Positions 24,844 through 49,638 of a stretch of DNA of 64,000 bases are shown one piece after another. The notes below the pieces were generated by a model. The model made no database searches, was not told the DNA's origin, and saw only the letters and a list, made by a program, of their open reading frames with translations. The translations under genes were made by a program, and so were the position numbers. Positions within the stretch are counted from its first letter, which is position 1, and each line of letters opens with the position of its first letter. Origin of the DNA: Escherichia phage NHEP1; sequence record PQ511146.1, one strand, 5' to 3'.

Positions 24844-24927
24844 GGTGTTTTCCTTCCAGTTGTGAGCGGCACTATTGCCGCCCTACGTGATACATCTTAC
24901 ACTATCCGGCACATCATGCAAGCTATT

Positions 24928-27672: not shown

Positions 27673-27716
27673 TACTCCTTTTTTGCACTGATTATTTTAA
27701 CAGGGTTTAAATTTAC

Positions 27717-27756
27717 TTTATTGATGGCCCTGGAATCAAGGCCATCTAAAAATAAA
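27717..27756. repeat. Conserved 40-bp hairpin cassette TTTATTGATGGCCCTG..CAAGGCCATCTAAAAATAAA (copy 1 of 3)
   Basis: Near-identical copies at 31423-31462 and 32045-32084. Confidence 0.6.
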
Positions 27757-27758
27757 TT

Positions 27759-27959
27759 TTACAGGCCTACAATCTCTTTAATTCGTTTTACTGCTGCCTC
27801 AGCGCCTTGAGGGTAAAAATTATGGTAACCAATCACGCGAGTGATACTAATCGCCGTTTGATGATCTTCATAATCACCTTTAAAGATTTCTTGACCGTCA
27901 ATCAGCACGGCAATTTTTTCTTCTTTTTTGAAGTTAATAACGCGGATATTGTTGCTCAT
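27759..27959 (-). CDS. Hypothetical protein
   Basis: Track ORF 66 aa; promoter, GGGGAGCAATCCCC hairpin and AAAGGAG RBS upstream. Confidence 0.5.
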   Translation of the reverse strand: MSNNIRVINFKKEEKIAVLIDGQEIFKGDYEDHQTAISITRVIGYHNFYPQGAEAAVKRIKEIVGL

Positions 27960-31075: not shown

Positions 31076-31131
31076 GGTGTTAATAAATTATCTTTATAGA
31101 TGGCCCTGCAACCAGGACCACCGAAAAATAA

Positions 31132-31377
31132 CTATTTCACAATGCCTACAAAACAGATCCCGCCTTCACCTATGTAAGCAATATCGGTCACTTTGTAGTC
31201 GGTTAAGATCTGTTTATTCAGATCATTAATAAAATCGGTCATTGCGTTGGTGTAGTTGTCTTCTGTATCTAAGGCATAATCCCAGGTGTAAACCTTTTTA
31301 CGTCCGAAGCCTTTTACCATGATACGGGCGCTTTTGGTGTTAGTAGGGGCATAATACTTGGTGATTAGTGCTGCCAT
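31132..31377 (-). CDS. Hypothetical protein
   Basis: Track ORF 81 aa; GAGGAG RBS. Confidence 0.5.
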   Translation of the reverse strand: MAALITKYYAPTNTKSARIMVKGFGRKKVYTWDYALDTEDNYTNAMTDFINDLNKQILTDYKVTDIAYIGEGGICFVGIVK

Positions 31378-31422
31378 GGTTTTAACTCCTCATTAGTTCA
31401 GTGTTAACAGTGTAAAGTTTAC

Positions 31423-31462
31423 TTTATTGATGGCCCTGAAGTCAAGGCCATCTAAAAATAAA
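31423..31462. repeat. Conserved 40-bp hairpin cassette (copy 2) carrying a minus-strand TTGACT -35 in its loop
   Basis: Minus strand reads TTGACT-N18-TAAACT upstream of gene 31132..31377. Confidence 0.55.
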
Positions 31463-31464
31463 TT

Positions 31465-31806
31465 TTACTCGTTTTCTTCCAGCTTTGAAAGCTCTTCTTT
31501 CACTTCTTCAAGCTCTGTCTGCAATTCTTGGTATTCTTCGTCGTCCTCAATATCCAGGCTGTCGATGTAGTCGCTAAATCCGCAGCGGTAAGCGATAGGA
31601 TCTAACTCCTTGAGGATACGCGACGGAAGAAAAGAAATGCTTCCGATCATAATTTCGCCGTAGATCTCGTCTAACCATTCATCATAGTTTTCGTCGTACT
31701 TGTCCTCGTCGATTTCAAAGTTATCGATCTTGTTCTCAAGGTCTGCGATCTGTTTTTTCAGCGCGGCGATCTGCATAGCTTTTTCTGCGGCGGTCATAGT
31801 AGTCAT
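31465..31806 (-). CDS. Acidic coiled-coil-like hypothetical protein
   Basis: Track ORF 113 aa. Confidence 0.5.
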   Translation of the reverse strand: MTTMTAAEKAMQIAALKKQIADLENKIDNFEIDEDKYDENYDEWLDEIYGEIMIGSISFLPSRILKELDPIAYRCGFSDYIDSLDIEDDEEYQELQTELEEVKEELSKLEENE

Positions 31807-32044
31807 GGTGTTTTCTCCTTTTGTGTATTCTGGGAAGTTTTCCCGTTTACGTGTTTAAGTATATCAATCTAAGTTAGCTTGTCAATTAAAAATTTAAGAA
31901 AAATTTTGCAAAACTGTTAGCGCTACTCATTAACATTTGCGCCAGGATGTAACCGACAACGCAAACGATAATAGTTACCTTTGTGTATTGGCGTGTAGTG
32001 CTCATCTTAAAGCCCCCTTTTTCGCTTAGTTGAGACTAGTTTAC

Positions 32045-32084
32045 TTTATTGATGGCCCTGGAGTCAAGGCCATCTAAAAATAAA
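32045..32084. repeat. Conserved 40-bp hairpin cassette (copy 3)
   Basis: Same sequence family as 27717 and 31423. Confidence 0.55.
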
Positions 32085-32085
32085 C

Positions 32086-32490
32086 TTAATAAGTTTTCAG
32101 TACTTTACCGTCCAACCTGTCAAGCTGGATCTCAATAGCTGCAGAAAACCTATTGTACACCACGTCGCCCATGGAATCCAACCAGTCTATGACGTTATAC
32201 ACCTGCTCTTTGTTCTTGCAGGTCCGGATCCGTTTCATGATGTAAGCCGGATCAATATTGGTACTTTCGTTGGTGTTCCCCTGTACCTGATTTGCCGTAT
32301 TAGTTACATCTTTAATGGCCTTTACCACCACCTGGAAGGGCTTTAAGGTGCCTTTTGCGTTCATCTCACGCACTTTTGCGGCGCGGTTGTTATAGGTTAC
32401 ACAACGGCGGCAAATGTTCACTAAGTGCATGTCAATAATTTTTTCATCGTTTGCCAGTTCGTTCATGATGCGGCGTACGTTCTTATTCAT
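32086..32490 (-). CDS. Hypothetical protein
   Basis: Track ORF 134 aa. Confidence 0.5.
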   Translation of the reverse strand: MNKNVRRIMNELANDEKIIDMHLVNICRRCVTYNNRAAKVREMNAKGTLKPFQVVVKAIKDVTNTANQVQGNTNESTNIDPAYIMKRIRTCKNKEQVYNVIDWLDSMGDVVYNRFSAAIEIQLDRLDGKVLKTY

Positions 32491-33633: not shown

Positions 33634-34510
33634 TTTTTTTTTTTTTTGAAAGTGTTGACAGCGGCCCCGCCAGGTGGCACAATATACCTATCGAAAGGAC
33701 GGCAGGCACCGGTGACGGGGGAGACAACCACCGGGGATGGGCGCTGCATAAAATGAGAACGGTTATCATTATCATTTAAAAATTTATGCAAAAAATCCTT
33801 GCTCTCTTTGTCCTGTGTGATACTATAATAACAAGCCGGGGCAACAGGGGCCGGGAGACAATCACCGGGGGTGCCTGTTATTCTGCAAACGAGAATGATT
33901 ATCATTCAAAATTCTAAATGAGAACTTCTCGCATTTCATAAATTTAATTAGCATGCTAATTACCTACCGTGACAATTCTATATAAAATAATACCTCCTTA
34001 AGTATTTCCATATACAAATTTTAAAAATCCATTTCCGAAAACGAAAAATCGCTTTCGTTCCCAAAAATTTCAGGTCGAGCGCCGGAACGATTTCCAGAAA
34101 ATCTGATTCAGAAAACGAAAAACAGATCGAGTACTGAGAAATTTATCGAGAAAAATTTTCAGAAAATTCAATCTTTGAAATGAAAAACAGATCGAGTACT
34201 GAGAGAGATGTGCCTAAACTTCCTGATAATGATGGGCTTATTGTTATAAAAGGCCAGAAGTAAGTTGGGAAAGTTCTGGTAGATGGGTGAGAGTGTGTGC
34301 GGAAAATCTGGAACGGTGATTTGAAGTACGGTGCGAATGATAGAATGAGTAGCGCAGCTTATCGTGCCTGTCTTGAAAAAATCCATTTTAGTTTTCGATC
34401 CATTTTCTGATTTTCTAAGAATTTTAAAATATCCGACTAGGTAAAATATCAAAAGGAGGAAATCTATTTTAGAAACCCTCCTTATACTTGATGTGCCAGG
34501 GATTTTCAAG
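33634..34510. repeat. Repeat-dense non-coding hub: T14 tract, split hairpin element (copy B), direct repeats, 18-bp perfect palindrome
   Basis: T-run 33634-33647; GGGAGACAAYCACCGGGG twice; TAATTAGCATGCTAATTA at 33945-33962; GAAAAACAGATCGAGTACTGAGA twice. Confidence 0.55.
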
Positions 34511-37571: not shown

Positions 37572-37988
37572 TCAACAGAAAACTTCAACAAATTCTTCCA
37601 CAGTTTTAATGTCGTGGGAAAAAGGTTTGCGGCTATAACGGGCAATAGCACTGTCAACCACCGCCCGGTACTCCAAATCTTCAGAATATTTCATGAAGCA
37701 TTGCAACGTCTCTGGACAGATAGCCAGATAGCTCCACCACCCCTCTTCAGATTGGTAGTCAAATCCCATACTCTCTAGCCACGAAGCGTATACACCTGCA
37801 CCTTCCAGCCAGTGAGTATTTTCATCAAGGAACTTGTTCACAGTCATGTGAGCTTCTAAGCATTTATCCAACTCTTTTCCGTTAACCAGCCACGCACTGA
37901 CAGTGGCGCATCCAAGGTCCACAGATTGGGTTGATAGATTGTATTGGTCATAGTTCTCAGGTTTAACAATGATATCTTCTAATGTCAT
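37572..37988 (-). CDS. Hypothetical protein
   Basis: Track ORF 138 aa. Confidence 0.5.
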   Translation of the reverse strand: MTLEDIIVKPENYDQYNLSTQSVDLGCATVSAWLVNGKELDKCLEAHMTVNKFLDENTHWLEGAGVYASWLESMGFDYQSEEGWWSYLAICPETLQCFMKYSEDLEYRAVVDSAIARYSRKPFSHDIKTVEEFVEVFC

Positions 37989-38007: not shown

Positions 38008-38035
38008 AAAAATGCCCCACCCTTTCGGGCAGGGC
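38008..38035 (-). terminator. Rho-independent terminator (minus strand)
   Basis: Minus strand GCCCTGCCC-GAAA-GGGTGGGGC followed by ATTTTTGT; identical hairpin recurs at 49129-49150. Confidence 0.6.
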
Positions 38036-38050
38036 TATGTTGACTAGATG

Positions 38051-39277
38051 TTAAAAAGGTATGTCATCATCAAAGGCGTACTGTGCCGGATTCTGATCCA
38101 TCGGGTCGTCTTCCGCATCATCTACAGGAGGAGCGTCTACAGTGTTTTGCTGTGGGGCGGCTTCCTGTTTGGCAGCTTGAGGCTCTTGATGGTCAGTGAC
38201 TCCAGCACCGTTCTTGATCCAATCATACAACGGTTCAGCAAGATTAGTCAAGACATCTTTTGCCTCTGCAGTAATTGCTACTGCAAAATCATCAACTTTC
38301 GTTTTCTTGTCAATACGGCGACAAGCGTTCAATACCGCATTACCAACACTGGCACCTACTTCATCTTCAGTTCGGTTAGTGGCTTGAGCGTACTCTTTCT
38401 TAAGCTCGATGGTGACCACGTGCAGTGTTTTAGCCACATCTAAAGGACTGTCAATCTTAAACCCGCGATCCAGGATGATCTGCAATGCATTGATACTGTG
38501 CCCTGTCTCTACACCGATGGGGTCGTAAGAGGATTTACGCTTACCACCAGAACCTTGTGTACCGTTCTCTGCTTTAGGCGGGTAGGCCTTGAAGCCGCTG
38601 ATAATATTCCCGGTGTCTTTGTCAACAATAGCTGCAACACGACCACCTACCACCAGGTCTTTAAGCTGCTCATCAGAGACAACCATAGCACCTTCACCAA
38701 TCTTGTGATCATTGACAGTAACCACGTTGCCAACAATCTGAGTCACATCGCCATAGATGCGTAAAACGTCCTGATTGGCATTCTGCTGAGGTTTCTGCTT
38801 CTGGCCTTGTGATTGTGCACCTTGTTGCTGTTTTTGCTGCTGAGTCGCTGCTGGAGCCTCTCCTGCACCCAGCTTGACCATCTTAGCCAGGGAGCCTTTG
38901 TAATAGATCTTACCGTTATGCTCGTTTGCCTTCAAAGGGATATTTACGATCCATCCTGGCGTTACAGTTTCCCACTTGTCATCAATTTTAACAGAGACAG
39001 AGTCTTGATGACCCGGTTTAAGCAGCTTATCACCCATACTGATCCAAACTTCTTCACCACCTTGAAGCAGGTTATCAGAGGAATCCAGTTCAGAAATCAG
39101 TAAAGAGATGGTGTGGCTGGATTCAATTTTCTTACCTTGCCACACAGTGGTTTTAATACCTGTTGTAGGATCAGCACCTTTGATAGGCTTGATGCTGACA
39201 CGTTTAATCATGCCGTGAGCCAGTAAAACAGTTTCACGCGGATTCATCGGGTTAGCGAATTGTTGAATAACGCTCAT
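38051..39277 (-). CDS. Hypothetical protein with Gln-rich linkers and bacterial SSB-type C-terminal tail (DDDIPF)
   Basis: 408 aa; C-terminus ...AQYAFDDDIPF; N-terminal region unlike a canonical SSB OB fold by eye. Confidence 0.6.
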   Translation of the reverse strand: MSVIQQFANPMNPRETVLLAHGMIKRVSIKPIKGADPTTGIKTTVWQGKKIESSHTISLLISELDSSDNLLQGGEEVWISMGDKLLKPGHQDSVSVKIDDKWETVTPGWIVNIPLKANEHNGKIYYKGSLAKMVKLGAGEAPAATQQQKQQQGAQSQGQKQKPQQNANQDVLRIYGDVTQIVGNVVTVNDHKIGEGAMVVSDEQLKDLVVGGRVAAIVDKDTGNIISGFKAYPPKAENGTQGSGGKRKSSYDPIGVETGHSINALQIILDRGFKIDSPLDVAKTLHVVTIELKKEYAQATNRTEDEVGASVGNAVLNACRRIDKKTKVDDFAVAITAEAKDVLTNLAEPLYDWIKNGAGVTDHQEPQAAKQEAAPQQNTVDAPPVDDAEDDPMDQNPAQYAFDDDIPF

Positions 39278-39753
39278 TATTTATCTCCTTGTTCTTCGTT
39301 AGTGTTTGCCGTGTGTGCAAACCCTGCTTGAATTAATTTGTCCTGAACTTGAGCCAACAGGCCCATTGCAAAACTTGTGGTCCCAGAGAGGGCCATCAGC
39401 ATATCTCGTTGTTGAGCTACCCAACCTAAGGCATAGTCCAAACGACGATATTTTTCTTCTTCACGCAGAGCCTGGAATAATTGTTCAGCCTCTGGCTGTT
39501 GTGTAAGCTCCTGAAGTCTTCCCATGAAAGAAGAAAGCACTAGCAGAAGAGACACTTGATCTTTACTTAACCCTAAGAAAAATTCTTGAGGTTGTTCTTG
39601 CTCGTTCATCGCAACCGACGCTTGATCGTTCATTTGTTCCATTATGGAATCTCCGATTTTATTTGAACAACATAGAAGGAGACACCATTTTAGCATCTCC
39701 TTCTGCAAATTACAACAGGTATTTGTTAGCCAATTACTTCGAAAGTACCCCAA
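39277..39753 (-). CDS. Hypothetical protein
   Basis: Track ORF 158 aa. Confidence 0.5.
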   Translation of the reverse strand: MGYFRSNWLTNTCCNLQKEMLKWCLLLCCSNKIGDSIMEQMNDQASVAMNEQEQPQEFFLGLSKDQVSLLLVLSSFMGRLQELTQQPEAEQLFQALREEEKYRRLDYALGWVAQQRDMLMALSGTTSFAMGLLAQVQDKLIQAGFAHTANTNEEQGDK

Positions 39754-39971
39754 CTCCCGTTCAGCAGGCAGGTGATCGGATCACCATCATCGTCAATTAT
39801 TTCAAAGTTTTCAACATCCAGAATATGGTCATCGAACACAATGCTCTTATCGCCACCACCAGAAATAACAGCGTATTCCTTACCTTGTGTTAGGTTCTGG
39901 CAACCTTTGCCGCCGAAACCAACTTCAACACAACGTACTTTCTGTCCTGCGCGAGCAACTACTCCAGCCAT
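39726..39971 (-). CDS. Hypothetical protein
   Basis: Track ORF 81 aa. Confidence 0.45.
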   Translation of the reverse strand: MAGVVARAGQKVRCVEVGFGGKGCQNLTQGKEYAVISGGGDKSIVFDDHILDVENFEIIDDDGDPITCLLNGSWGTFEVIG

Positions 39972-39988
39972 CTTAAGGTCTCCTGATA

Positions 39989-40309
39989 TTAATCGTCAAG
40001 TTCAAAATAGATTTTAACAGCTTCATCAAAGATTGGAATCCCGATGTTGTTGATAAGCTGCCAAACTACCATATCTTTTCCTGGATCTGGGAGAATGTCA
40101 ACCTTTCTCCATGCGCTATATATCCAGTTCGGACCGCCTTCTGCACTAACTGGTAGATTTTCACCAGCTTCTTGTAAATACTTATACAGCAAAAGGTATT
40201 CTGGGTACTCTAGAACACTGTCCTCTGTAGTATATAGCAGTTCACGGTATACTTTCAAGAATCCTGTTGGGTTGATGTTTTCAGTCTTCATTTGCTGCTT
40301 CTCCTGCAT
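39989..40309 (-). CDS. Hypothetical protein
   Basis: Track ORF 106 aa. Confidence 0.5.
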   Translation of the reverse strand: MQEKQQMKTENINPTGFLKVYRELLYTTEDSVLEYPEYLLLYKYLQEAGENLPVSAEGGPNWIYSAWRKVDILPDPGKDMVVWQLINNIGIPIFDEAVKIYFELDD

Positions 40310-40685
40310 TCATCAGATCTGCCATAGCGTCACCAACGAAGAGGACAACCACGTCGTTGACAGCGTCAGCATCATCTTTATTGATGTTGCTGAATTTGGG
40401 GCACACTGCAATGACCATATAGACCCCGTTGCCCAACTGAACAGTGCGTGTAGTGCACATTAGTGTGGTGCTTGTGCCTTCTTTAAAGGCAAATCCTTGC
40501 AGACGTTCTTCCAGAGAGTCACCTGTGGATTTCAACAAGGCAAGATCGCCCAATGCGTAGGTAGTGTCCTCATAGGTCAGTCCAGAGGTCAATGTTGCCT
40601 TTCCATCAGAAACTATAATAACCCCATCGGCACCGTCAAGCTCAGAGGCTTCAAAGATATTAATATCCCAAATGTTTTTCATCAC
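40281..40685 (-). CDS. Hypothetical protein
   Basis: Track ORF 134 aa. Confidence 0.5.
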   Translation of the reverse strand: MMKNIWDINIFEASELDGADGVIIVSDGKATLTSGLTYEDTTYALGDLALLKSTGDSLEERLQGFAFKEGTSTTLMCTTRTVQLGNGVYMVIAVCPKFSNINKDDADAVNDVVVLFVGDAMADLMNAGEAANED

Positions 40686-41002
40686 GCTTCCTCGTCATCT
40701 AATGGGTTGAAGATTTCACCGAAGTATTCTAAGACTTCCAGCTCACGGGTGGTGCAGAAAACACAGTCCCCGTTGTCATCTTCGATAACGGCCTCTTTAC
40801 CAAGAACATCAACTTCAAATTCGTCGTTTAACAGAACGGAACCTGTGTAAACTTTATCTGCCGTGCAGTCCCGAAAAGCAGAGTCCTTCTCCAAGTAGTC
40901 TGGCTTAACCTTGGCTTTAATTCGTTGATATTGTTTGGTCATTGCTGTGGTCCCCTTTCGTTTTGATAGGGCCATTATATTAGGCCCTATCGCTATTGTC
41001 AA
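40682..41002 (-). CDS. Hypothetical protein (paralog of 41006..41260)
   Basis: Shared AF(R/K)DCT and DD(N/E)GD.V(F/W)CT motifs. Confidence 0.5.
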   Translation of the reverse strand: MTIAIGPNIMALSKRKGTTAMTKQYQRIKAKVKPDYLEKDSAFRDCTADKVYTGSVLLNDEFEVDVLGKEAVIEDDNGDCVFCTTRELEVLEYFGEIFNPLDDEEA

Positions 41003-41005
41003 GTA

Positions 41006-41260
41006 TTAATGCTCAGGTTTTACAAAAACTACTTCGTTAACAGTGCACCAGACAGAATCCCCTTCATCATCTTTAAAGGTAAGACACTGGGCCGAGTTTT
41101 CCAACTCATCAAGTTCTTCTTGTGATAAATAGGTCCCTTCTTCCAGAAGGGCTTTTACCAGAGGGTTCTCACAAAACTCTGCTTCATAAATTGCACCGAG
41201 TGTGCAATCTTTAAAAGCTCGGTCATTTGCAACGCATTCTGGCTTCAAAGTAATTTTCAT
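41006..41260 (-). CDS. Hypothetical protein (paralog of 40682..41002)
   Basis: Shared motifs with the upstream neighbour. Confidence 0.5.
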   Translation of the reverse strand: MKITLKPECVANDRAFKDCTLGAIYEAEFCENPLVKALLEEGTYLSQEELDELENSAQCLTFKDDEGDSVWCTVNEVVFVKPEH

Positions 41261-41335
41261 CTTGGCGGTCTCCTTAATTATTTAAAATCAACGCTCTGTC
41301 TGTGTGGGGTATCTTACATCTACCCCAACTTGTTG

Positions 41336-41734
41336 TCAACGACTATTTTCAATCATCCACCAAGGATCGAGATAAGTTTGTTGACTTTTTGCCCACTGGC
41401 AAACTTCATTGTACATCTGGATCTCTTTGTCCGTCAGTTCACGAATAGGCTCATCTATACCCTCATTTTTGTGGTAATCCCAGTCGGCATCGATTTCCCA
41501 CAACCATGACTTACGATCTTCACGTTTACGCACACAGAAGTCCCCAGGACGGCCTGCCAGTGCATTTAGGAACTCGTTCTCCGCTCGCTCCTGGAGAATA
41601 CTAAGGAGCAAAACGTTGGAGCATGACCGTAAAATATGCTTCAGCTCACAATCATCGATCTCAACTTCAATACGTTGCTTGACTGTGTGGGTACCTTTTA
41701 CTAACATTCTACCTCCTCTAGACGAACTCTGCAA
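41336..41734 (-). CDS. Hypothetical protein
   Basis: Track ORF 132 aa; consensus promoter upstream. Confidence 0.5.
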   Translation of the reverse strand: MQSSSRGGRMLVKGTHTVKQRIEVEIDDCELKHILRSCSNVLLLSILQERAENEFLNALAGRPGDFCVRKREDRKSWLWEIDADWDYHKNEGIDEPIRELTDKEIQMYNEVCQWAKSQQTYLDPWWMIENSR

Positions 41735-41912
41735 GGGTTGTGTTGTTCACTGCACCGCAGTAGATGGAGTATCCCAACCCGTTAGGGTGTAGAAACCACG
41801 GCACACCTTGATCATCCTTCACGTATACATCTCCATTTTCCGTAAAGGGCCAATACTCTTCTCCAAGGGTAAAATACCTACTCATACCTTCAGCCAGATA
41901 CTTTACTTTCAT
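41718..41912 (-). CDS. Small protein, DDxGxxW(F/Y)L paralog family
   Basis: KDDQGVPWFLHPNGLGYSIY motif shared with the next two ORFs. Confidence 0.45.
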   Translation of the reverse strand: MKVKYLAEGMSRYFTLGEEYWPFTENGDVYVKDDQGVPWFLHPNGLGYSIYCGAVNNTTLAEFV

Positions 41913-42136
41913 AGATCCTCTTCAACAGCTACAAACTTGGCAAGTAGGGTGGTTCCATAGATATGATACTCACCGTTTGCCAGATGGGAGATAAACCAGG
42001 CAACACCGTCCTCGTCTTCGATCATATTGTTTCTGCGATCCTCGTCGTAATAAACCTTGTAGACCTTACCTTCTTCAAAGAATGATAGGTCTGTCATCTT
42101 CTCTTCTACAAATGTCGCTTTAACCAAAGTTGTCAT
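41909..42136 (-). CDS. Small protein, DDxGxxW(F/Y)L paralog family
   Basis: DEDGVAWFISHLANGEYHIY. Confidence 0.45.
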   Translation of the reverse strand: MTTLVKATFVEEKMTDLSFFEEGKVYKVYYDEDRRNNMIEDEDGVAWFISHLANGEYHIYGTTLLAKFVAVEEDL

Positions 42137-42507
42137 TGATCTGCCTCCTTCTTGTTGAGCCGGAACACTGCAATAATAGCATTTCCAAGATGCAGTGTCA
42201 AATCATTTCCCAGATACCATAACATTCCACGGTCATCTTTAATGAAAGGGTAACAATCCGGTGCCTTCCAGACATTATACACTTTGCCGACCTGAAAGAA
42301 ATCAGGCCCTGTTGGAATTTTAGTACCGGGCCATACTTGGGACACCTGAACGCATTCTACCTGCATAATGACAGGGATAGTCATGGAGGTAAATGTTTTT
42401 GTTGGTTCTACTACCATAAAAGTCTCCTCTCTGTCTAACAACACTTCCGTGTGTTGATAGTTTACATTAGTGACAATCACCCCAGTTACGACCGCACAAG
42501 TATTCAC
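42133..42507 (-). CDS. Small protein, DDxGxxW(F/Y)L paralog family
   Basis: KDDRGMLWYLGNDLTLHLG. Confidence 0.5.
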   Translation of the reverse strand: MNTCAVVTGVIVTNVNYQHTEVLLDREETFMVVEPTKTFTSMTIPVIMQVECVQVSQVWPGTKIPTGPDFFQVGKVYNVWKAPDCYPFIKDDRGMLWYLGNDLTLHLGNAIIAVFRLNKKEADQ

Positions 42508-45500
42508 CTGTGATCTGGAACGGAACGCCCATCATTTTAGAAGCCTGCCAGAAGCAATGCACCACCATTTCGCCCACAGGGCTCCAGATAAGCTCAAGCT
42601 TTCCGTCATCATTCAAGATAGGATCGTATACCGTATTTCCATCCTTGTCAACCACTTCGTTTCCGTCCTCATCTTTGCGTGCCTTTTTGTACTTATGACC
42701 GTCGAACACATGAAGTTTAGCCTCTTGTTGGGCTTTAAATGTTTCCAGCTCTTCAATTGTGTCGAAGGTGTATACGGTTTTATACTTAGGTGTGTCAGGC
42801 ACTTGAAGCTGATATTCGTCATGGTAATAGATAATACGACGAACACCCTCATCATACCATCCACGCTTCACCATCTGGTGGTGCATGAGGATTCCGACCA
42901 AGTCGCACAACGATGCACCGCCATTTTGCTGATATGCATTAAGCAAAGAGTGTTTAGAGCGGGTCCAAATGGCATGCCCGTCAAAAGAGTAGATAAATTT
43001 CTTACCTGTTGCTTCCCAGAATTTCTCCAGATCCTCTTTACGCCCCTTAAGGCCCGGGTTGGCATCCCAGAGAGCATCAATTACTCTCTGTCCAAGTTCT
43101 GGAGAGATATCTAGCATATCTGCAACTTTATCTTTTTGTGCCCCGTACATAACCCCATATGTGACAGGCTTACCATCGTTACGGGAAATCTCCTTGCCTG
43201 CTACAGAAGAGTAAGCTTTGGCGTTATTACAGTTACCGCACACTGCCACTTTACCATTCCTTCTCACAATGATTGCTCCAGAAGGGACGGTAACGCAATA
43301 AACCAAAGAACCGCTCACCTCGACAGACTCTTTAGATAGTGTCAGCAACCCTGCTCTCTGTTTGCTACCAATCGTGATTCTGTGCTGTACGGAACGACCT
43401 TTTTTGTGAATCGCCACCGTATTATTCCGTAAACCACACTGAGTAGCCAGCGCAGACACAACCTCTACAGATTTCTTCCTGCACCCGGCCTGAGAGTAGT
43501 AGGCAACTTTTCCACCTTCGGAAGATACCCACCCGTCCCAGTTAGATAAAGAAGCTATAAACAGGTTTTTAGATTCTTTATCAAGGTCCATCAGGTTGTA
43601 GGTGAAATCCTTATTGCTGTCCAAAAACTCAAATACCCAGGACGGAACGTGGAATTGGAACCTTCTCGCCAGTAAGCCCCCTTTTGTGGTTTTCCCGCTC
43701 TGCTCTACATAACTAAGGCTTAGAGCAGAAAAAGTATCTAAAAGCGTTGCAACTTTTCTGCCCTTCCCGACCTGAATCCTGCACACGATGCTGCCGTCCT
43801 TATTTGTATGCAAGTGCCCATCATCGTGAATAGCAATAAGCAAATTAACCTGGGCAGGAGATAAGGTTGTATTCCCATAAAACTCTGCCGCATGGATAAA
43901 CCTTCTTCCTGAATTAGACCCTTTACCTGCTTTCAGGTCTTTTGCCAAATCTTCAAACAATTTATTGCTTCTGTGATCCACGGTCAGCATCCTGTGTTGA
44001 TCTGTAACCATAAAATCCACACTGCTGTTGTGGAAATGATACATATCCCCACAATAACTACGCTTAACGTAATTTAATGGAGTAACAAGGTTCATCGACG
44101 AGGTGTTGTGATCGTACTGGAACACCTGTGTTCCCGGATCAAGATCTTCAAACCTCACCCACCCTTTCTCCGTGAGAATTTGTGTATCTCCTGAATAACA
44201 GTGTGCATCGCCGTTACTTACAACATCATAATACAGACCGTTGTCAAACTCAAAGGCACCCCAGGCCCCGATGAGCTGCTCTAAGTTGGACCCGTCAATA
44301 CCGATCTCAAAGTATCCTGGAGGAACACCCCACAGACTACGCATCTCTTTACCCATAACCACTTTAGGAGATGGTTTAGGCATGTTTGCACAAATACTAT
44401 GTTTCTGTCTGGAAGTGTTTGTTAATCCAGAACTTTTAGCAGGAAGCTTGTGGTCAATCTTCAAACGTGGATGATTAAGAAGACCAGTATCAACCTTATC
44501 TTCCTTGATTGGATCAAGGACCGATCTGCGGTTTCGCAATGATAACCACAAAACGATATCTTTAGCCATCTCTCCGTTCAATTTTTCAAGATTCGGGCAC
44601 AGGTGTCCAAACGTATCTTTCAGTTGCGGAGAAGTAATAAGCGCTCTGGCTTTTCTACGTATCTTCCCAAACACTTCCTTTTTAATCCTTTCTGAGTTAG
44701 GGAAGCTTCGGAACTTATGCACAGTTGTCTGGAACTTGGCATCAGTTTTGTTCCAGAAGTTGATAATTAGATCACAATACTCTGACTCCAAAAGCTCGTC
44801 CATATATGCATATACTCGTGCATCAACATCTGCATCAGGTAAAGCTTTCTTCTTGCTGTCTTTAGTTACATCTTTAGTTCTCCACATTGTTGGGAGCCAA
44901 CCAGCACTGATCAGGTATCGCTTGATGTCGTCCTGATTGCTGATTTTCATAGGTATCTTGCAGTCAGGCATTCGCTTCTGCTGTAGGTCACTTATCGCCT
45001 GATCCATCAGCTCTTTAGGTAAAGGGTGTGGTGTAGAAGTTCCTTTGATATACCCCCTCAAGAAATCAGCCATCTTATCGGGGTCTTTACAGCCCATCTC
45101 TTCACACCATTTTATCCCCATCTTACTTACATCCCCTGTGGAGGTAAATGCTCGCTTAGGAGGAGCTTTGAACTCTAAAGCACTCATGTCCACAGGGTAG
45201 CCAAGCTTGTCTTTTAACCATTTCCAACCATTATTGGAGATTGTCCCATCTTGGTTAAACGGCTTTTCAGGGAACTTAGGCCGCTGAGACATTGATAACT
45301 CTTTTAAAGGAAGTTGTGGTTCAACACGATCAGCGATCTCTTTCATCCACGCATCGCAACGGTCACGTAAAGCAATAGCCCCATCTATGTCGAAATACAC
45401 CCCCTGTCGAGCCTGCAGCTCCATCAGGAAGTGCTGTAACATGCCTCGGCGTAATGCGTTCTTCCAGGTGATCTTCTTGAAGCCTTTCGGCTTCTCTTTG

Positions 45501-46213
45501 GCAGGATCGTACATAAAGTTCTGCATGTCAGATTTGCCGTAGAATACACCTTTTGATTCCGCTACCAACTCCTTCCAGAGCAACTCCTGGATGATAACGT
45601 CCTCGAACACACGATCCACATACTTCCACAGTGGAAGCTCACGCCAGTCATCGATTTGAACTTTCTGGTTACCAAGGGCATAGCCCCATGCCATAAGGCC
45701 ATGAGGCCCAACAGGCTGCATTTTCTTGGTAACTGGATTGAATACTGCGTCCGGACAACCTTTTGGCAAAGGGCGGTCAGGCCACAAGATTCGGCTCATC
45801 GCTAACGTATCAAACAGATTAACCGGGTGGTCGTTGATAGTCCCCATGCATTTAGGATCACGGAACATATCAAAATGAATACCGGATAATCTTTCCATCA
45901 GCATAAAGTCGTAACTGTAGCAGTTATGACAGTTCAAAGCCGTAGGTGACCAGTCTGAATTGCCTGTAAGCCAACCTTCCAACTCTGAAAAATCTGCTAT
46001 GCGAGCCTCAAAATCTGTATAAAGGGTCTTCTTTGCCAGAATGAAGTTCTTAGCTTTCTCCACATCCTCTTCAGAGTAGTGTGTGCGGTCATTTAGAGGA
46101 AGGAACAGCATAAAACGGTTCTTATTCAGCTCTTTAAACAAACCGCAGTGATAATAAAGATCTGGGTCTTCCAGCAGGCCAGAGGCCTCAAAATCGAACG
46201 ACCACATGCTCAT
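42467..46213 (-). CDS. DNA polymerase, family A (T7 gp5-like), intein-containing
   Basis: N-terminal exonuclease motif FDFEASGL and YHCG; motif A-like GIDGSNLEQ...FDNG; motif B-like NAK...YGVMYGA; motif C-like YYHDEYQ; AAGGAG RBS. Confidence 0.85.
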   Translation of the reverse strand: MSMWSFDFEASGLLEDPDLYYHCGLFKELNKNRFMLFLPLNDRTHYSEEDVEKAKNFILAKKTLYTDFEARIADFSELEGWLTGNSDWSPTALNCHNCYSYDFMLMERLSGIHFDMFRDPKCMGTINDHPVNLFDTLAMSRILWPDRPLPKGCPDAVFNPVTKKMQPVGPHGLMAWGYALGNQKVQIDDWRELPLWKYVDRVFEDVIIQELLWKELVAESKGVFYGKSDMQNFMYDPAKEKPKGFKKITWKNALRRGMLQHFLMELQARQGVYFDIDGAIALRDRCDAWMKEIADRVEPQLPLKELSMSQRPKFPEKPFNQDGTISNNGWKWLKDKLGYPVDMSALEFKAPPKRAFTSTGDVSKMGIKWCEEMGCKDPDKMADFLRGYIKGTSTPHPLPKELMDQAISDLQQKRMPDCKIPMKISNQDDIKRYLISAGWLPTMWRTKDVTKDSKKKALPDADVDARVYAYMDELLESEYCDLIINFWNKTDAKFQTTVHKFRSFPNSERIKKEVFGKIRRKARALITSPQLKDTFGHLCPNLEKLNGEMAKDIVLWLSLRNRRSVLDPIKEDKVDTGLLNHPRLKIDHKLPAKSSGLTNTSRQKHSICANMPKPSPKVVMGKEMRSLWGVPPGYFEIGIDGSNLEQLIGAWGAFEFDNGLYYDVVSNGDAHCYSGDTQILTEKGWVRFEDLDPGTQVFQYDHNTSSMNLVTPLNYVKRSYCGDMYHFHNSSVDFMVTDQHRMLTVDHRSNKLFEDLAKDLKAGKGSNSGRRFIHAAEFYGNTTLSPAQVNLLIAIHDDGHLHTNKDGSIVCRIQVGKGRKVATLLDTFSALSLSYVEQSGKTTKGGLLARRFQFHVPSWVFEFLDSNKDFTYNLMDLDKESKNLFIASLSNWDGWVSSEGGKVAYYSQAGCRKKSVEVVSALATQCGLRNNTVAIHKKGRSVQHRITIGSKQRAGLLTLSKESVEVSGSLVYCVTVPSGAIIVRRNGKVAVCGNCNNAKAYSSVAGKEISRNDGKPVTYGVMYGAQKDKVADMLDISPELGQRVIDALWDANPGLKGRKEDLEKFWEATGKKFIYSFDGHAIWTRSKHSLLNAYQQNGGASLCDLVGILMHHQMVKRGWYDEGVRRIIYYHDEYQLQVPDTPKYKTVYTFDTIEELETFKAQQEAKLHVFDGHKYKKARKDEDGNEVVDKDGNTVYDPILNDDGKLELIWSPVGEMVVHCFWQASKMMGVPFQITGEYLCGRNWGDCH
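43232..44200 (-). mobile_element. Intein (about 323 aa) with LAGLIDADG-like endonuclease motifs inside the polymerase gene
   Basis: Begins CYSGDTQIL right after GDAH; T..H block; LIAIHDDGHL and FIASLSNWDGW motifs; ends ...VAVCGN before +1 Cys; extein boundaries by alignment-by-eye. Confidence 0.75.
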
Positions 46214-46219
46214 ATACAG

Positions 46220-46260
46220 TTCTCCTTAAAGGGGAGGCGGTTGTACTACCCCTCCCACTC
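46220..46260 (-). terminator. Stem-loop between primase-helicase and polymerase (terminator or attenuator)
   Basis: Minus strand GGGAGGGGTAGTACAACCGCCTCCCC followed by TTTAAGGAG. Confidence 0.4.
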
Positions 46261-46271
46261 TTGGTTAAACA

Positions 46272-48350
46272 TTAAAAAGGTGTTTCGTCGTCTTCAAAAC
46301 CAGGAACGTGGTTAGAGGACGGATCATCATACTGAAGGTCTTCCTGTGTGTCAACAGGGTTAACAGCAGGGGTTATAACCTTATCAGCCACAACCTTGCC
46401 CACAGGTGTTTCTACAACTGCATGCTCCTGATCCTCAAACATAGCCTGAGGTCTCCAAACAACCTCCCCACCTTCCCCGTCTGTAAACATCTGCATTTCT
46501 TTGTCCCAGTACCAGTTGCTGGCATCATAGAACTTGCCTGTGTGGGGATCCATAACTAGAGTGTCCGCAATACCTAAGGTTTTTGCTGGGCGGTTTTTAA
46601 GACCTACCAGTCGGACACGTCCACGGGAACGATCCACCATCTCCTCTGCCTCTACCCCGACAACCACCCAGCTAAGTTGCTCCAATCCGGCACTACCGCG
46701 AAGGTTCTCTTTTCGTACAGGGTACCAGAAAGGTAACGGATTTCCATCCTTATCCTTCGGAGGTACAATCTCTGTGCGCTTCAGGTGAGCAATCACCAAG
46801 ATAAACACATTAAACTGCTTACAGAACGCGGCTAGTTGAGTCATAGCCATGTCAAGCTCTTTACGCTCATCCTTAACATTAAGCCCTGAAATCACCATAG
46901 ACAGGTGATCCAGCACAATGTAACGGCAGTGATACAGGCACACCATTTGTTTAAGCTTAGTGATCAGCTCATCTACAGGGATGGAGCCGAAATGCTTGAA
47001 CACTTTGATTTTTCCGGCCTTGGCCCAAGATTGATGAATCTCAGCGTGCTCCTGATCGGTCAGGAACTGACTGGGGTCTTCAACAAACTCTTTAACATCA
47101 AACCCCAGCTGGTTAGCGTACAGAGAGTTGATTGCTTCCTCAGGATCCTCTTCAAGGTGAATCAGGCACAGGCGATCATCCTCTTCATAATCATCAGCTT
47201 TAGGGCATGTTGGATCCATCAAGTATCTTGCAATGCAATGTTCCAGCTTCTTGGCTACAGTTGTTTTACCACCGCCAGACGGGCCTGTCAGCATCATCAA
47301 GGTGCCTTTGTGGAGTCCTTTCAGCATCTTCTGCAGTTTAGGGAACTCTGCACTGATATCTACGCCATTGGAAGTCTTCTTACGAAGAGATTCAATGGAG
47401 AAGTCTTCTAAATCAGATACAGCATCAGGCACATATTTGACTGGGTGACGGAACATGTTGACAATATCTTCCAGCTTTTTAGCCTTCAGCATGTCACGAA
47501 TATCTTTTACACCATCAGGGTCGTTTACCTCACCCGGGTATTCCACGTGGTAAACGTTATCAGCCATCAAAAATGCTGCGATATTATGTGTGGCTTCAAC
47601 ACCTTTAATAACGTGTTTTTGCTTCTCTACCTCGTTAGCTGCATCGTTGTCCATTGCAAGGACCACTGTTCCGTAGCTACGGATAAATTTCTCATTGTTC
47701 GCAAAAGTGTCTACGGCGTTTGCACACCCACAGTTAATTCCAACAAAAGGCAGGCATGGTTTTCCTGCCAGATCCCCGCCGTTGATAACTGCATCAATCC
47801 CATCCTGGACTTCTTTAGCCCACTGCTTCACCTTCGCTGGGGCTTTAGCATTGGTGAGAATTCCTTTTACTTGTATCTGATATGCAGCCTGCCACGCTGC
47901 AATAACATCTCCTTCTCCCTCACAAACGTTAATCTGCTTACGGTTGTTGGAGGATGCACACAGCTTTTGACCAAACATCTGGGAGTTGGCCTTTACTATG
48001 CCAACAACCGAGAAATGGCCCCTTTGCTCTTTAGGGATTGTCCAGTCACGCTTTTTAAAGCCAGATAGATTACCGTAGCGGTCATAATACGGAAAGTAGG
48101 TGGCAGTAACAGTTACACCATCCTCTTGGGATAGCGATGATCGTACACCAAAATATTGTGCAGCCATCAGTCCAATATTTTGTTGTGGAACAGGGACAAT
48201 TTTAGTGTTTTCTAAAACAGTCTCCACAGTTTCAACTTCTTTTTCATCACGATAGTCTCGTTTCACACTCCCCCCACTTTTATACTTAGTTGCTTTCGGG
48301 TTTGGCTCACCGAAACGGTTGTATGCAGATGCCATGAATTTACTGCCCAT
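46272..48350 (-). CDS. DNA primase-helicase (TOPRIM plus DnaB-family helicase, T7 gp4-like)
   Basis: TOPRIM-like VCEGEGD and LAMDNDAAN; Walker A GPSGGGKT; Walker B-like FILVIAHL; AAGGAG RBS. Confidence 0.8.
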   Translation of the reverse strand: MGSKFMASAYNRFGEPNPKATKYKSGGSVKRDYRDEKEVETVETVLENTKIVPVPQQNIGLMAAQYFGVRSSLSQEDGVTVTATYFPYYDRYGNLSGFKKRDWTIPKEQRGHFSVVGIVKANSQMFGQKLCASSNNRKQINVCEGEGDVIAAWQAAYQIQVKGILTNAKAPAKVKQWAKEVQDGIDAVINGGDLAGKPCLPFVGINCGCANAVDTFANNEKFIRSYGTVVLAMDNDAANEVEKQKHVIKGVEATHNIAAFLMADNVYHVEYPGEVNDPDGVKDIRDMLKAKKLEDIVNMFRHPVKYVPDAVSDLEDFSIESLRKKTSNGVDISAEFPKLQKMLKGLHKGTLMMLTGPSGGGKTTVAKKLEHCIARYLMDPTCPKADDYEEDDRLCLIHLEEDPEEAINSLYANQLGFDVKEFVEDPSQFLTDQEHAEIHQSWAKAGKIKVFKHFGSIPVDELITKLKQMVCLYHCRYIVLDHLSMVISGLNVKDERKELDMAMTQLAAFCKQFNVFILVIAHLKRTEIVPPKDKDGNPLPFWYPVRKENLRGSAGLEQLSWVVVGVEAEEMVDRSRGRVRLVGLKNRPAKTLGIADTLVMDPHTGKFYDASNWYWDKEMQMFTDGEGGEVVWRPQAMFEDQEHAVVETPVGKVVADKVITPAVNPVDTQEDLQYDDPSSNHVPGFEDDETPF

Positions 48351-49134
48351 TAATTCTTCTCCTTACTGCAGGCTCGTTTGCTAAGAATACAGCTCTTGCC
48401 CAGCCACGTGGTGTAAGGCTTCGAATCATCTTCGTCCTTGCACTCTTTCCACCTAGCTTAGCGTGTTGCATGGAATAACCACTAACCGCATCAACTATTT
48501 GCGGGACAGGTTTTGTGGCGGGGATTATAAATCCATTGCCTATCCAACCGCAAGTTATTTTTGGGTAGGCATCACGTGGAGCTATAAATTCAGGAAACCA
48601 TGGGTTTACATCATCCTCTGGTAAATACCCACCATAATCCGAAGGATGAAAACGGTAATCAGGTTTTCGCCACAGTGTTGACATAACTCCTACAGGGTTC
48701 TCTACATGCCACGGGCAATCGTAAATCTCTCCCAACTCTTCTGCAACCCGAGCATCTTTCACAGCATTAATTTGGATCAGAGGATCCTTAGCCAGCTTTT
48801 TCTTAAAGTGTGCAGCTCCGGATACTGCTAAATGCGTGCACGGAGGAAATGCAAGAATAAAGTCTGGAGCCGGATACATGCAAAAAGTTTCTTGAGGGAA
48901 CCATGGATCAATCCAATAATCCACATAGTGAATGTTAGGATGATCGGTTATCACCTCTACATAACTACCGTGGTCAGCACCTTCTGCATTAAAGCACAGG
49001 CACAGGTACCCAGCTTTTGCCCAGTCAATAACTGCACCACCGGACCCGTCAAATAGACTCCACACGACACCTTTGTGGTAGTGTTCTTTGTAGATAAATT
49101 TCAATTTGCTGTCTCCTAATGCAAAAAGCCCCAC
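48340..49134 (-). CDS. Putative C5-cytosine DNA methyltransferase-like protein (start codon uncertain)
   Basis: Motifs LFDGSGGA (I-like), FPPCTHLAVSGA (PC motif), HVENPVG (ENV-like) in canonical order; track start is GTG inside a terminator hairpin, TTG at 49104 with GGAGA RBS is an alternative. Confidence 0.4.
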   Translation of the reverse strand: MGLFALGDSKLKFIYKEHYHKGVVWSLFDGSGGAVIDWAKAGYLCLCFNAEGADHGSYVEVITDHPNIHYVDYWIDPWFPQETFCMYPAPDFILAFPPCTHLAVSGAAHFKKKLAKDPLIQINAVKDARVAEELGEIYDCPWHVENPVGVMSTLWRKPDYRFHPSDYGGYLPEDDVNPWFPEFIAPRDAYPKITCGWIGNGFIIPATKPVPQIVDAVSGYSMQHAKLGGKSARTKMIRSLTPRGWARAVFLANEPAVRRRINGQ

Positions 49135-49150
49135 CCTTTCGGGCAGGGCA
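49129..49150 (-). terminator. Terminator hairpin identical to the one at 38012-38033
   Basis: GCCCCACCCTTTCGGGCAGGGC on plus strand. Confidence 0.45.
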
Positions 49151-49155
49151 TAGTG

Positions 49156-49638
49156 TTAAACCCGGATACCTATTGTATACTCGGTGGATACCAATGTCAA
49201 ATCTAAATTTAAAATTTCTTGCATCTCATAGTATGCGTCCAGGGTGAGATACATTTCACCATCCTTTTCTACATACTTGTCAAGGTGTTTTAGGCACTTT
49301 GGATAGCTATCAAGGGCAGCCTTTAGGCACTCAAACTCCGTGCTGTTGATGAATCCTTCCATCTTGGCTACCCGTTCCGGAGTAACGATAGCACTGTAGT
49401 GAGATTTAGCTTCCTGAATGCAATGGGTCCAAGCATCAACTTTCTCTTCGAAAAGTCCGAAGAACTTCTTCTTGGTGAGCTTCAGATTCTTTAAGTGCTT
49501 AAGAACTCGGTTGCCGATTACAGACACATCACGAAACTTAAGGATCACTTTGTCAATATCCTCGCGGCCTATTTTCACAAAGCAGGCCTCACACATTTCA
49601 GGAGAGGCATAGCCTACTTTCCACATAAAATCTGACAT
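49156..49638 (-). CDS. Hypothetical protein
   Basis: Track ORF 160 aa. Confidence 0.5.
   Translation of the reverse strand: MSDFMWKVGYASPEMCEACFVKIGREDIDKVILKFRDVSVIGNRVLKHLKNLKLTKKKFFGLFEEKVDAWTHCIQEAKSHYSAIVTPERVAKMEGFINSTEFECLKAALDSYPKCLKHLDKYVEKDGEMYLTLDAYYEMQEILNLDLTLVSTEYTIGIRV

Follow-up and report, generated by a model that had tools for sequence, protein, structure and literature searches.

Two copies of one hairpin bracket the replication genes of Escherichia phage NHEP1 (PQ511146.1), which raises the question of what these elements do and how they came to be identical. We addressed this question in a stretch of 64,000 nucleotides, hereafter the window, which belongs to a Vequintavirus (an rV5-like E. 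coli myophage) and in which all genes of the region lie on the minus strand. A search of the window found two exact copies of the 22-mer GCCCCACCCTTTCGGGCAGGGC (plus strand), one at 38014-38035 (site 1) and one at 49128-49149 (site 2). The sequence-only reading that drew attention to the pair was right about the exact two-copy reuse but placed the copies at 38012-38033 and 49129-49150, off by +2 and -1. No third copy occurs in the window with up to three mismatches allowed, and 100 dinucleotide-preserving shuffles yielded 0 matches to the 22-mer, the chance expectation being no copy. The full repeat is 27 nt long, AAAA(T/A) followed by the 22-mer, with 26 of 27 positions identical (repeat family D13). 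The whole genome of rV5 also holds only 2 copies, even with up to six mismatches, and its 28 terminator-like hairpins include no other identical pair.

On the minus strand, both copies read GCCCUGCCC-GAAA-GGGUGGGGC. In minus-sense RNA this gives a stem of nine pairs, seven G-C and two G.U, capped by a GAAA loop; the next bases are AUUUUUG at site 1 and UUUUUG at site 2. The 9-bp stem, GAAA loop and U-run that had been proposed for the minus strand are therefore all present, both in the sequence and in the predicted fold. With a predicted energy of -17.6 kcal/mol for the hairpin alone, it is the strongest terminator-like hairpin in the window. The arrangement has a direction: read as plus-strand RNA, the two G.U pairs would be C.A mismatches, and only the minus strand has the combination of stem, GAAA loop and U-run. 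Over all six distinct variants, 100% of stem cells pair in the minus sense vs 75.9% in the plus sense. Both sites show the anatomy of an intrinsic terminator, namely a stable GC-rich stem-loop in the sense-strand RNA, a U-rich tract directly 3' of the stem (invariant in 18 genomes), and an intergenic position 3' of a gene on the same strand. No Rfam family was matched at gathering score anywhere in the window.

Site 1 (38008..38035, minus strand; hairpin 38035..38014, then AUUUUU at 38013..38008) is a predicted intrinsic terminator corresponding to rV5 t213. Its hairpin starts 15 nt past the stop codon of a 408-aa ORF (38051..39277, minus strand), the homolog of rV5 ORF214 and the last gene of the bracketed block, and 26 nt beyond the hairpin begins a 138-aa ORF homologous to rV5 ORF212 (37572..37988, minus strand). 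Site 2 (49123..49149, minus strand; hairpin 49149..49128, then UUUUU at 49127..49123), likewise a predicted intrinsic terminator, corresponds to rV5 t232. Here the hairpin starts 6 nt past the stop codon of a 160-aa ORF homologous to rV5 ORF232 (49156..49638, minus strand), which is found in Vequintavirus only (115 phage records, all at least 95% identical in amino acid sequence). The first gene downstream is annotated as a Dcm-like cytosine methyltransferase (48340..49104, minus strand; rV5 ORF231) and starts with TTG, or GTG in one relative, behind an AGGAGA ribosome-binding site. It is followed by genes for a 692-aa primase/helicase (46272..48350, minus strand), which lies between site 2 and the next strong promoter (46354..46326), and a 1248-aa family A DNA polymerase (42467..46213, minus strand, from the ORF list). 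The polymerase gene carries an in-frame intein-like insert of 324 aa. The two sites bracket a methyltransferase, primase/helicase and polymerase block. Pfam searches returned no family for the six ORFs neighbouring the hairpins, the 160-aa ORF and the methyltransferase gene included.

A promoter scan placed a sigma70-type promoter, rV5 P231, at 49172..49200 on the minus strand (TTGACA-17-TACAAT, 11/12). The promoter is contained in the 3' end of the 160-aa ORF; 22 nt separate the end of its -10 hexamer from the site 2 hairpin downstream, and both hexamers are invariant in 18 genomes. No minus-strand sigma70 match of at least 10/12 was present in 49128-46354, from site 2 to the strong promoter that follows, or in 38014-37575, downstream of site 1. 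We also considered anti-terminator pairing of the P231 leader (CGGGU) with the 5' arm of the hairpin, and dropped it: by eye the two share only 5 bp, and the pairing is absent from the predicted fold.

Both terminators are already known from the 2013 rV5 genome paper, and the finding is real but ordinary. In the available part of that source, Table S4 of Additional file 4 lists t213 and t232 as rho-independent terminators predicted with ARNold and MFOLD, and P231 is published as an rV5 promoter, which is also annotated (Kropinski et al., 2013, Virol J 10:76). The rV5 elements, as given there, are orthologous to those in the window, with the identical hairpin GCCCTGCCCGAAAGGGTGGGGC, the same strand and the same neighbouring genes: ORF214 or ORF213 together with ORF212 at one site, and ORF232 together with ORF231 at the other. 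The two genomes differ in detail. rV5 has an endonuclease gene, ORF213, that separates ORF214 from t213, whereas the window is without ORF213; and in rV5 and most relatives a G before the site 2 stem extends it to 11 pairs, whereas the window has a T there and 9 pairs. Neither Table S4 nor the available passages of the paper remark on t213 and t232 being identical (Kropinski et al., 2013). Terminator annotations in GenBank cover site 1 in Gotham (ARNold) and site 2 in Alma, Murica and Gotham. A literature search for Vequintavirus transcriptome, 3'-end or termination-efficiency data found none.

Both sites are present in 18/18 Vequintavirus genomes sampled from roughly 115 in GenBank, with the exact hairpin at site 2 in 17 of the 18 and at site 1 in 13. 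The substitutions seen, C2>U, G6>A and C9>U, all keep RNA pairing; each occurs at one site only, and none is common to both sites of any of the 18 genomes. The GAAA loop and the 3' arm are invariant across all 36 site instances, though the genus is shallow (90-97% nucleotide identity), which makes this conservation weak evidence of constraint. All changes among the six variants are one-sided, with no compensatory pairs, and so give no statistical proof of structure.

Beyond the genus, the replication regions of Mydovirus KB57 and Seunavirus SalP219 contain neither a copy of the hairpin nor a reused terminator. IMG/VR yielded two vequintavirus contigs only, with two copies each, and a search of metagenomes with the site 1 flanks as anchors returned two contigs only, the one that was read carrying the canonical hairpin. 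We rejected a host origin: 5,426 complete E. coli genomes gave no significant match, and the 35 matches from a degenerate scan of GTDB representative genomes were treated as chance. The titles that give a taxon point mostly to Streptomyces or to uncultured bacteria, and none of the titles refers to a member of the Enterobacteriaceae.

Taken together, these observations make it very probable that the two sites are rho-independent terminators, both probably leaky, which would owe their identity to an ancestral copy of the terminator unit alone. That the elements are terminators had already been proposed from the letters, and the reading is borne out by anatomy, strand, position after stop codons, conservation in the genus, the published rV5 predictions and the GenBank annotations, with function remaining a prediction. 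In this scheme, leftward RNA polymerase would produce a nascent RNA that folds into the 9-bp, GC-rich, GAAA-tetraloop hairpin, and the U5 tract behind the stem would weaken the RNA-DNA hybrid, so that part of the transcripts would be released. Site 2 (t232) would end the upstream rIIB-helicase-methylase run before the methyltransferase, primase/helicase and DNA polymerase genes, and site 1 (t213) would end the replication block ahead of the next run of small genes. Because the adjoining downstream genes lack a strong promoter, and P231 lies upstream of its hairpin, we reasoned that transcription must pass both sites to a useful degree, an argument that presumes that only sigma70 consensus promoters matter; middle or late promoters that escaped recognition could also drive these genes. 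A late motif has been proposed in rV5, in the available passages for genes 27-66 only (Kropinski et al., 2013). Both terminators are probably attenuators that set transcript dosage rather than full stops.

How the two copies came to be identical can be judged from what surrounds them. The pair had been taken as a sign of duplication together with adjacent gene modules, in which case the flanks would be paralogous, and the exact 22-nt identity is the sole observation in favour of such a segmental duplication. The alignment of the 200-nt flanks that the sequence-only reading called for detected no similarity past the 27-nt core, the flanks aligning no better than unrelated sequence. Unrelated flanks were one half of what that reading had named as evidence against itself. 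The flanking proteins are dissimilar as well: BLASTP of the upstream pair (408 aa vs 160 aa) and of the downstream pair (138 aa vs about 254 aa) gave E values above 2. Furthermore, the primase/helicase-polymerase gene order is ancestral and is shared in synteny by other genera that have no hairpin. With homology extending into neither the flanking DNA nor the flanking proteins, duplication with neighbouring genes is extremely unlikely. Since the repeat ends at 27 nt and both the flanks and the flanking proteins are unrelated, we favour a copy of the terminator unit alone. The unit of about 27 nt would have been copied in the ancestor of the genus, and each copy would have been under purifying selection since then, without ongoing homogenisation between the two.

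Two further readings give the identity itself a purpose. The hairpin could be a shared recognition site for a phage-encoded or host RNA-binding factor, such as an antiterminator or a protein that processes or stabilises RNA, with selection for identity coupling the onset of read-through at the entry to the replication block and at its exit; a P231 transcript would then carry the hairpin about 16 nt from the mRNA 5' end, where it could stabilise the mRNA. It would fit this reading that the pair is the sole reused terminator among the 28 in rV5 and brackets the replication module, that a conserved strong promoter stands upstream of site 2 and not downstream, that essential downstream genes need read-through, and that the loop and 3' arm never vary in the 36 site instances. 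However, shallow divergence of the genus alone can explain that invariance, and 5 of 18 genomes tolerate a change in the site 1 stem, the copies drifting independently, which is better accommodated by a constraint on structure only than by sequence-specific recognition. The boxA consensus is CGCTCTTWA; no minus-strand match resembling it was found closer than 100 nt to either hairpin, and across the window such matches are about as frequent as expected by chance. There is likewise no Rfam family match and no candidate factor. We consider a shared recognition site very unlikely. Equally so is the stronger version, in which the exact reuse is functional: the entry and exit hairpins would be a common target of a phage-controlled read-through or antitermination factor, or of an RNA-stabilising factor, and, together with P231 upstream of the entry hairpin, would act as a gate that times when rV5-like phages express their replication genes. 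The pair might instead be a mobile regulatory cassette or recombination linker of the PeSL type, a remnant of promoter/terminator cassettes used for module exchange through homologous recombination, as in RB49 and phi1. In these T4-type phages, each PeSL combines a stem-loop with a sigma70 promoter in a composite of ~100 bp, and many copies flank ORFans in hyperplastic regions (PMC2839356; PMC4122927). Repeated PeSL-like cassettes of promoter plus stem-loop do occur among the early ORFans of the same genome, some relatives carry an inserted mobile endonuclease VII gene immediately upstream of site 1, and the stem-loops of PeSLs are proven terminators. Yet the repeat here measures 27 nt vs about 100 nt and is without a promoter: only the hairpin and T-run are common to both sites, and the one promoter, 22 nt upstream of the stem-loop, belongs to site 2. 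Nor does the pair flank variable ORFans in a hyperplastic region with repeat-bounded indels; it flanks a conserved essential module, and the 16 genomes for which a single retrieved stretch covers both sites all keep the block between them, at 10.1-12.6 kb, the length varying with interruption of the polymerase gene and with the presence of an endonuclease gene next to site 1. A PeSL-type cassette is accordingly a very improbable explanation.

Two probably leaky terminators that would stem from copying one unit have very little importance beyond annotation, in that two transcription-unit boundaries are confirmed in a Vequintavirus genome. Nevertheless, the pair suggests that copying can involve a terminator unit by itself, and the hairpin, which nature uses twice, is a candidate terminator that is compact, folds strongly and would work in one direction. 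The order at site 2, promoter then terminator then essential genes, offers a concrete and cheap place to test regulated read-through in rV5-like phages.

Among known systems, the boxB hairpin of the lambda nut site, which serves N-dependent antitermination, resembles the element in being a small GC stem with a GNRA-type loop on nascent RNA, and both begin GCCCUG. Unlike boxB, the stem here has 9 bp vs 5 and is followed by a U-tract, there is no boxA-like element nearby, and no N-like protein was identified. We rejected a lambda-type nut site on the grounds that neither hairpin has a boxA-like element within 100 nt. Like the pair, PeSLs are regulatory stem-loops that recur in the early or middle genome regions of large virulent coliphages (Arbiol et al., 2010; Comeau et al., 2014), and they act as terminators or attenuators, a role predicted here, whereas in the window a 27-nt terminator alone is repeated, twice, around a core replication module. 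The canonical intrinsic terminators of E. coli differ in two respects, as the U-tract here is rather short at 5 U, activity being predicted, and there is no upstream A-tract, which makes this a one-direction element. In other respects the hairpins are like them: 9 bp with 7 G-C, a GNRA (GAAA) tetraloop closed by C-G, five U right after the stem or after one A, and an intergenic position past a stop codon.

The window carries two exact plus-strand copies of a 22-mer, GCCCCACCCTTTCGGGCAGGGC, at 38014-38035 (site 1) and 49128-49149 (site 2). No third copy is found there at up to three mismatches, none is expected from shuffled sequence, and the twofold occurrence is genuine rather than a product of chance. 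A repeat search (family D13) shows that the direct repeat spans only 27 nt, of which 26 are identical. Minus-strand RNA from either copy reads GCCCUGCCC-GAAA-GGGUGGGGC, forming nine pairs (seven G-C and two G.U), with AUUUUUG (site 1) or UUUUUG (site 2) 3' of the stem. At -17.6 kcal/mol, these are the strongest terminator-like hairpins of the window. Plus-sense RNA has C.A mismatches in place of the two G.U pairs, and the U-run is present on the minus strand only. The repeated unit is exactly the stem-loop and T-run, the functional terminator unit, and nothing beyond. A sequence-only reading had described a reused hairpin with a 9-bp stem, GAAA loop and minus-strand U-run. Each of these features is present, at positions shifted by +2 and -1 nt from the stated coordinates. 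The terminator reading holds up, and both elements qualify as intrinsic terminators at the sequence level.

Both elements are already published as predicted terminators of phage rV5. The rV5 genome paper predicted 20 rho-independent terminators by ARNold and MFOLD, and its Table S4 includes t213 at site 1 (121343..121370, minus strand, GCCCTGCCCGAAAGGGTGGGGCATTTTT, -22.3 kcal/mol) and t232 at site 2 (132395..132422, minus strand, GGCCCTGCCCGAAAGGGTGGGGCTTTTT, -22.3 kcal/mol) (PMC3606486). We confirmed both sequences at these positions in the rV5 record. GenBank terminator features mark both sites in Gotham, and site 2 in Murica and Alma. The complete rV5 genome holds only these two copies, even at up to six mismatches, and no other identical pair exists among its 28 terminator-like hairpins. 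None of 5,426 E. coli genomes contains the hairpin sequence; matches to a degenerate pattern in GTDB representative genomes were mostly Streptomyces and uncultured bacteria, with no Enterobacteriaceae member named in their titles.

At the DNA level, the window shares 92-97% identity with rV5-like myophages of E. coli in the genus Vequintavirus (e.g. ECP32, FV3 and rV5). GC skew stays below zero over the whole stretch between about 20 kb and 62 kb, and within the parts examined (22-53 kb) the minus strand carries every long ORF and every strong sigma70-like promoter. In transcription order on that strand, a 160-aa ORF (the rV5 ORF232 homolog), confined to Vequintavirus, has its stop codon 6 nt before the site 2 hairpin and U5 tract. 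These are followed by an AGGAGA ribosome-binding site, a gene with a TTG start annotated as a Dcm-like methyltransferase, the primase/helicase and family A DNA polymerase genes, and ~12 small genes. Last in the block is a 408-aa ORF (ORF214 homolog), whose stop codon lies 15 nt before site 1, and the ATG of a 138-aa ORF (ORF212 homolog) follows that site by 26 nt. One hairpin thus sits on either side of the core replication block.

The polymerase ORF (42467-46213) is 1248 aa long versus 925 aa in ECP32, the gap being a single in-frame 324-aa insert (43229-44200, minus strand) that starts CYSGDTQIL, ends VAVCGN and is followed by C. The insert matches Hint_2 weakly (E = 5e-5, short of the gathering score) and resembles an intein, one whose penultimate residue is not His. 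In some relatives the same gene is interrupted in other ways: rV5, FV3 and Mangalyan have an HNH gene between polymerase pieces, and LL12 has an annotated intron.

We compared both sites across 18 Vequintavirus genomes, comprising the window, 15 phages from GenBank and two IMG/VR contigs. Of these, 17 keep the exact hairpin at site 2, the exception being EPFV3 (C2>U), and 13 keep it at site 1, where ECP2303, YP-6, ECP32 and YN3 have G6>A and Murica has C9>U. All three change types leave a standard pair in the minus-sense stem, paired cells of the variant alignment amounting to 100% in minus sense versus 75.9% in plus sense, and the loop, 3' arm and U-tract are invariant. The variants are consistent with a minus-sense RNA structure but fall short of proof, because double compensatory changes are absent from these genomes and divergence within the genus is shallow. 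No genome has the same variant at both sites, so nothing points to ongoing gene conversion between the two copies.

In about one in four related phages, among them rV5, JEP1, Mangalyan, WM and 241Ecol014PP, an endonuclease VII/HNH-type gene has been inserted after the 408-aa ORF and ahead of the site 1 hairpin (site 1 region, window about 38036-38055; 2052-2675 of rV5 locus L001). In every case this gene ends 15 nt before an intact hairpin, so the mobile gene shares the site 1 terminator; genomes with and without this gene have different sequence in the 20-25 nt just before the hairpin. Sixteen GenBank 'Campylobacter phage' records (MG0656xx, e.g. MG065635.1), whose stated host is C. jejuni, share 91-98% identity with the window's E. 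coli Vequintavirus across the region, which suggests mislabelled hosts or contaminating coliphages in the submission.

The sequence-only reading had also proposed that the hairpin was duplicated together with adjacent gene modules. This is wrong. Alignment of ±200 nt at both sites found no similarity outside the hairpin core, and neither the upstream nor the downstream protein pair is related. The helicase, primase/helicase, polymerase order is syntenic in Mydovirus KB57 and Seunavirus SalP219, whose replication regions lack the hairpin and any reused terminator. Given a 27-nt repeat, unrelated flanks and flanking proteins, and syntenic genera without the hairpin, we reject gene-module duplication; the simplest history would be a 27-nt unit copied once in the genus ancestor.

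Both elements are most likely intrinsic terminators of leftward transcription. P231, a strong sigma70-type promoter (TTGACA-17-TACAAT, 49200..49172) likewise in the rV5 paper's listing (PMC3606486), has hexamers invariant in the 18 genomes and lies inside the 3' end of the 160-aa ORF, its -10 hexamer ending 22 nt before the site 2 hairpin (49123-49149 with its U-tract). RNA started at ~49165 would reach the site 2 terminator after ~16 nt; if promoter and terminator are both active, an abundant RNA of ~40-45 nt ending at site 2 is expected, and this RNA has no Rfam match. Because no sigma70 match of at least 10/12 lies between site 2 and 46354 or between site 1 and 37575, the methyltransferase and essential primase/helicase genes (site 2) and the ORF212 homolog (site 1) appear to depend on read-through. 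A factor recognising the shared hairpin could regulate it, but this idea has no positive support: neither site has a boxA-like element nearby, Rfam offers no match, and site 1 tolerates stem variants. We infer that both elements are probably leaky attenuators setting transcript dosage, assuming that those downstream genes are served by no unrecognised promoter class.

Identity with the PeSL (promoter-early stem-loop) cassettes of T4-type phages RB49 and phi1 was rejected. The hairpin repeat is 27 nt versus ~100 nt for PeSLs, carries no promoter, unlike the PeSL cassette, and flanks a conserved essential block, whereas PeSLs flank ORFans. PeSL-like promoter and stem-loop repeats do occur in the same genome, at 27.7-32.1 kb. 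A cassette of ~60 nt is present in four minus-strand copies in the small-ORF early region (27710-27770, 31086-31146, 31416-31476 and 32038-32098), with related families at 24861/25585/26156 and 29994/31832. Separately, tandem-like direct repeats of ~55 nt and ~47 nt (families D4 and D6, 70-78% identical) occupy a short AT-rich region, 34024-34204, which also contains a long, imperfect hairpin (34068..34031). The ~60-nt cassette comprises an AT-rich tract, TTTATTTTT, and a stem-loop, GATGGCCTTGA..TCAGGGCCATC, with a -35 hexamer (TTGACT) within the stem-loop and a -10 (TAAACT) 18 nt further on, and so resembles the promoter and stem-loop cassettes of RB49 and phi1.
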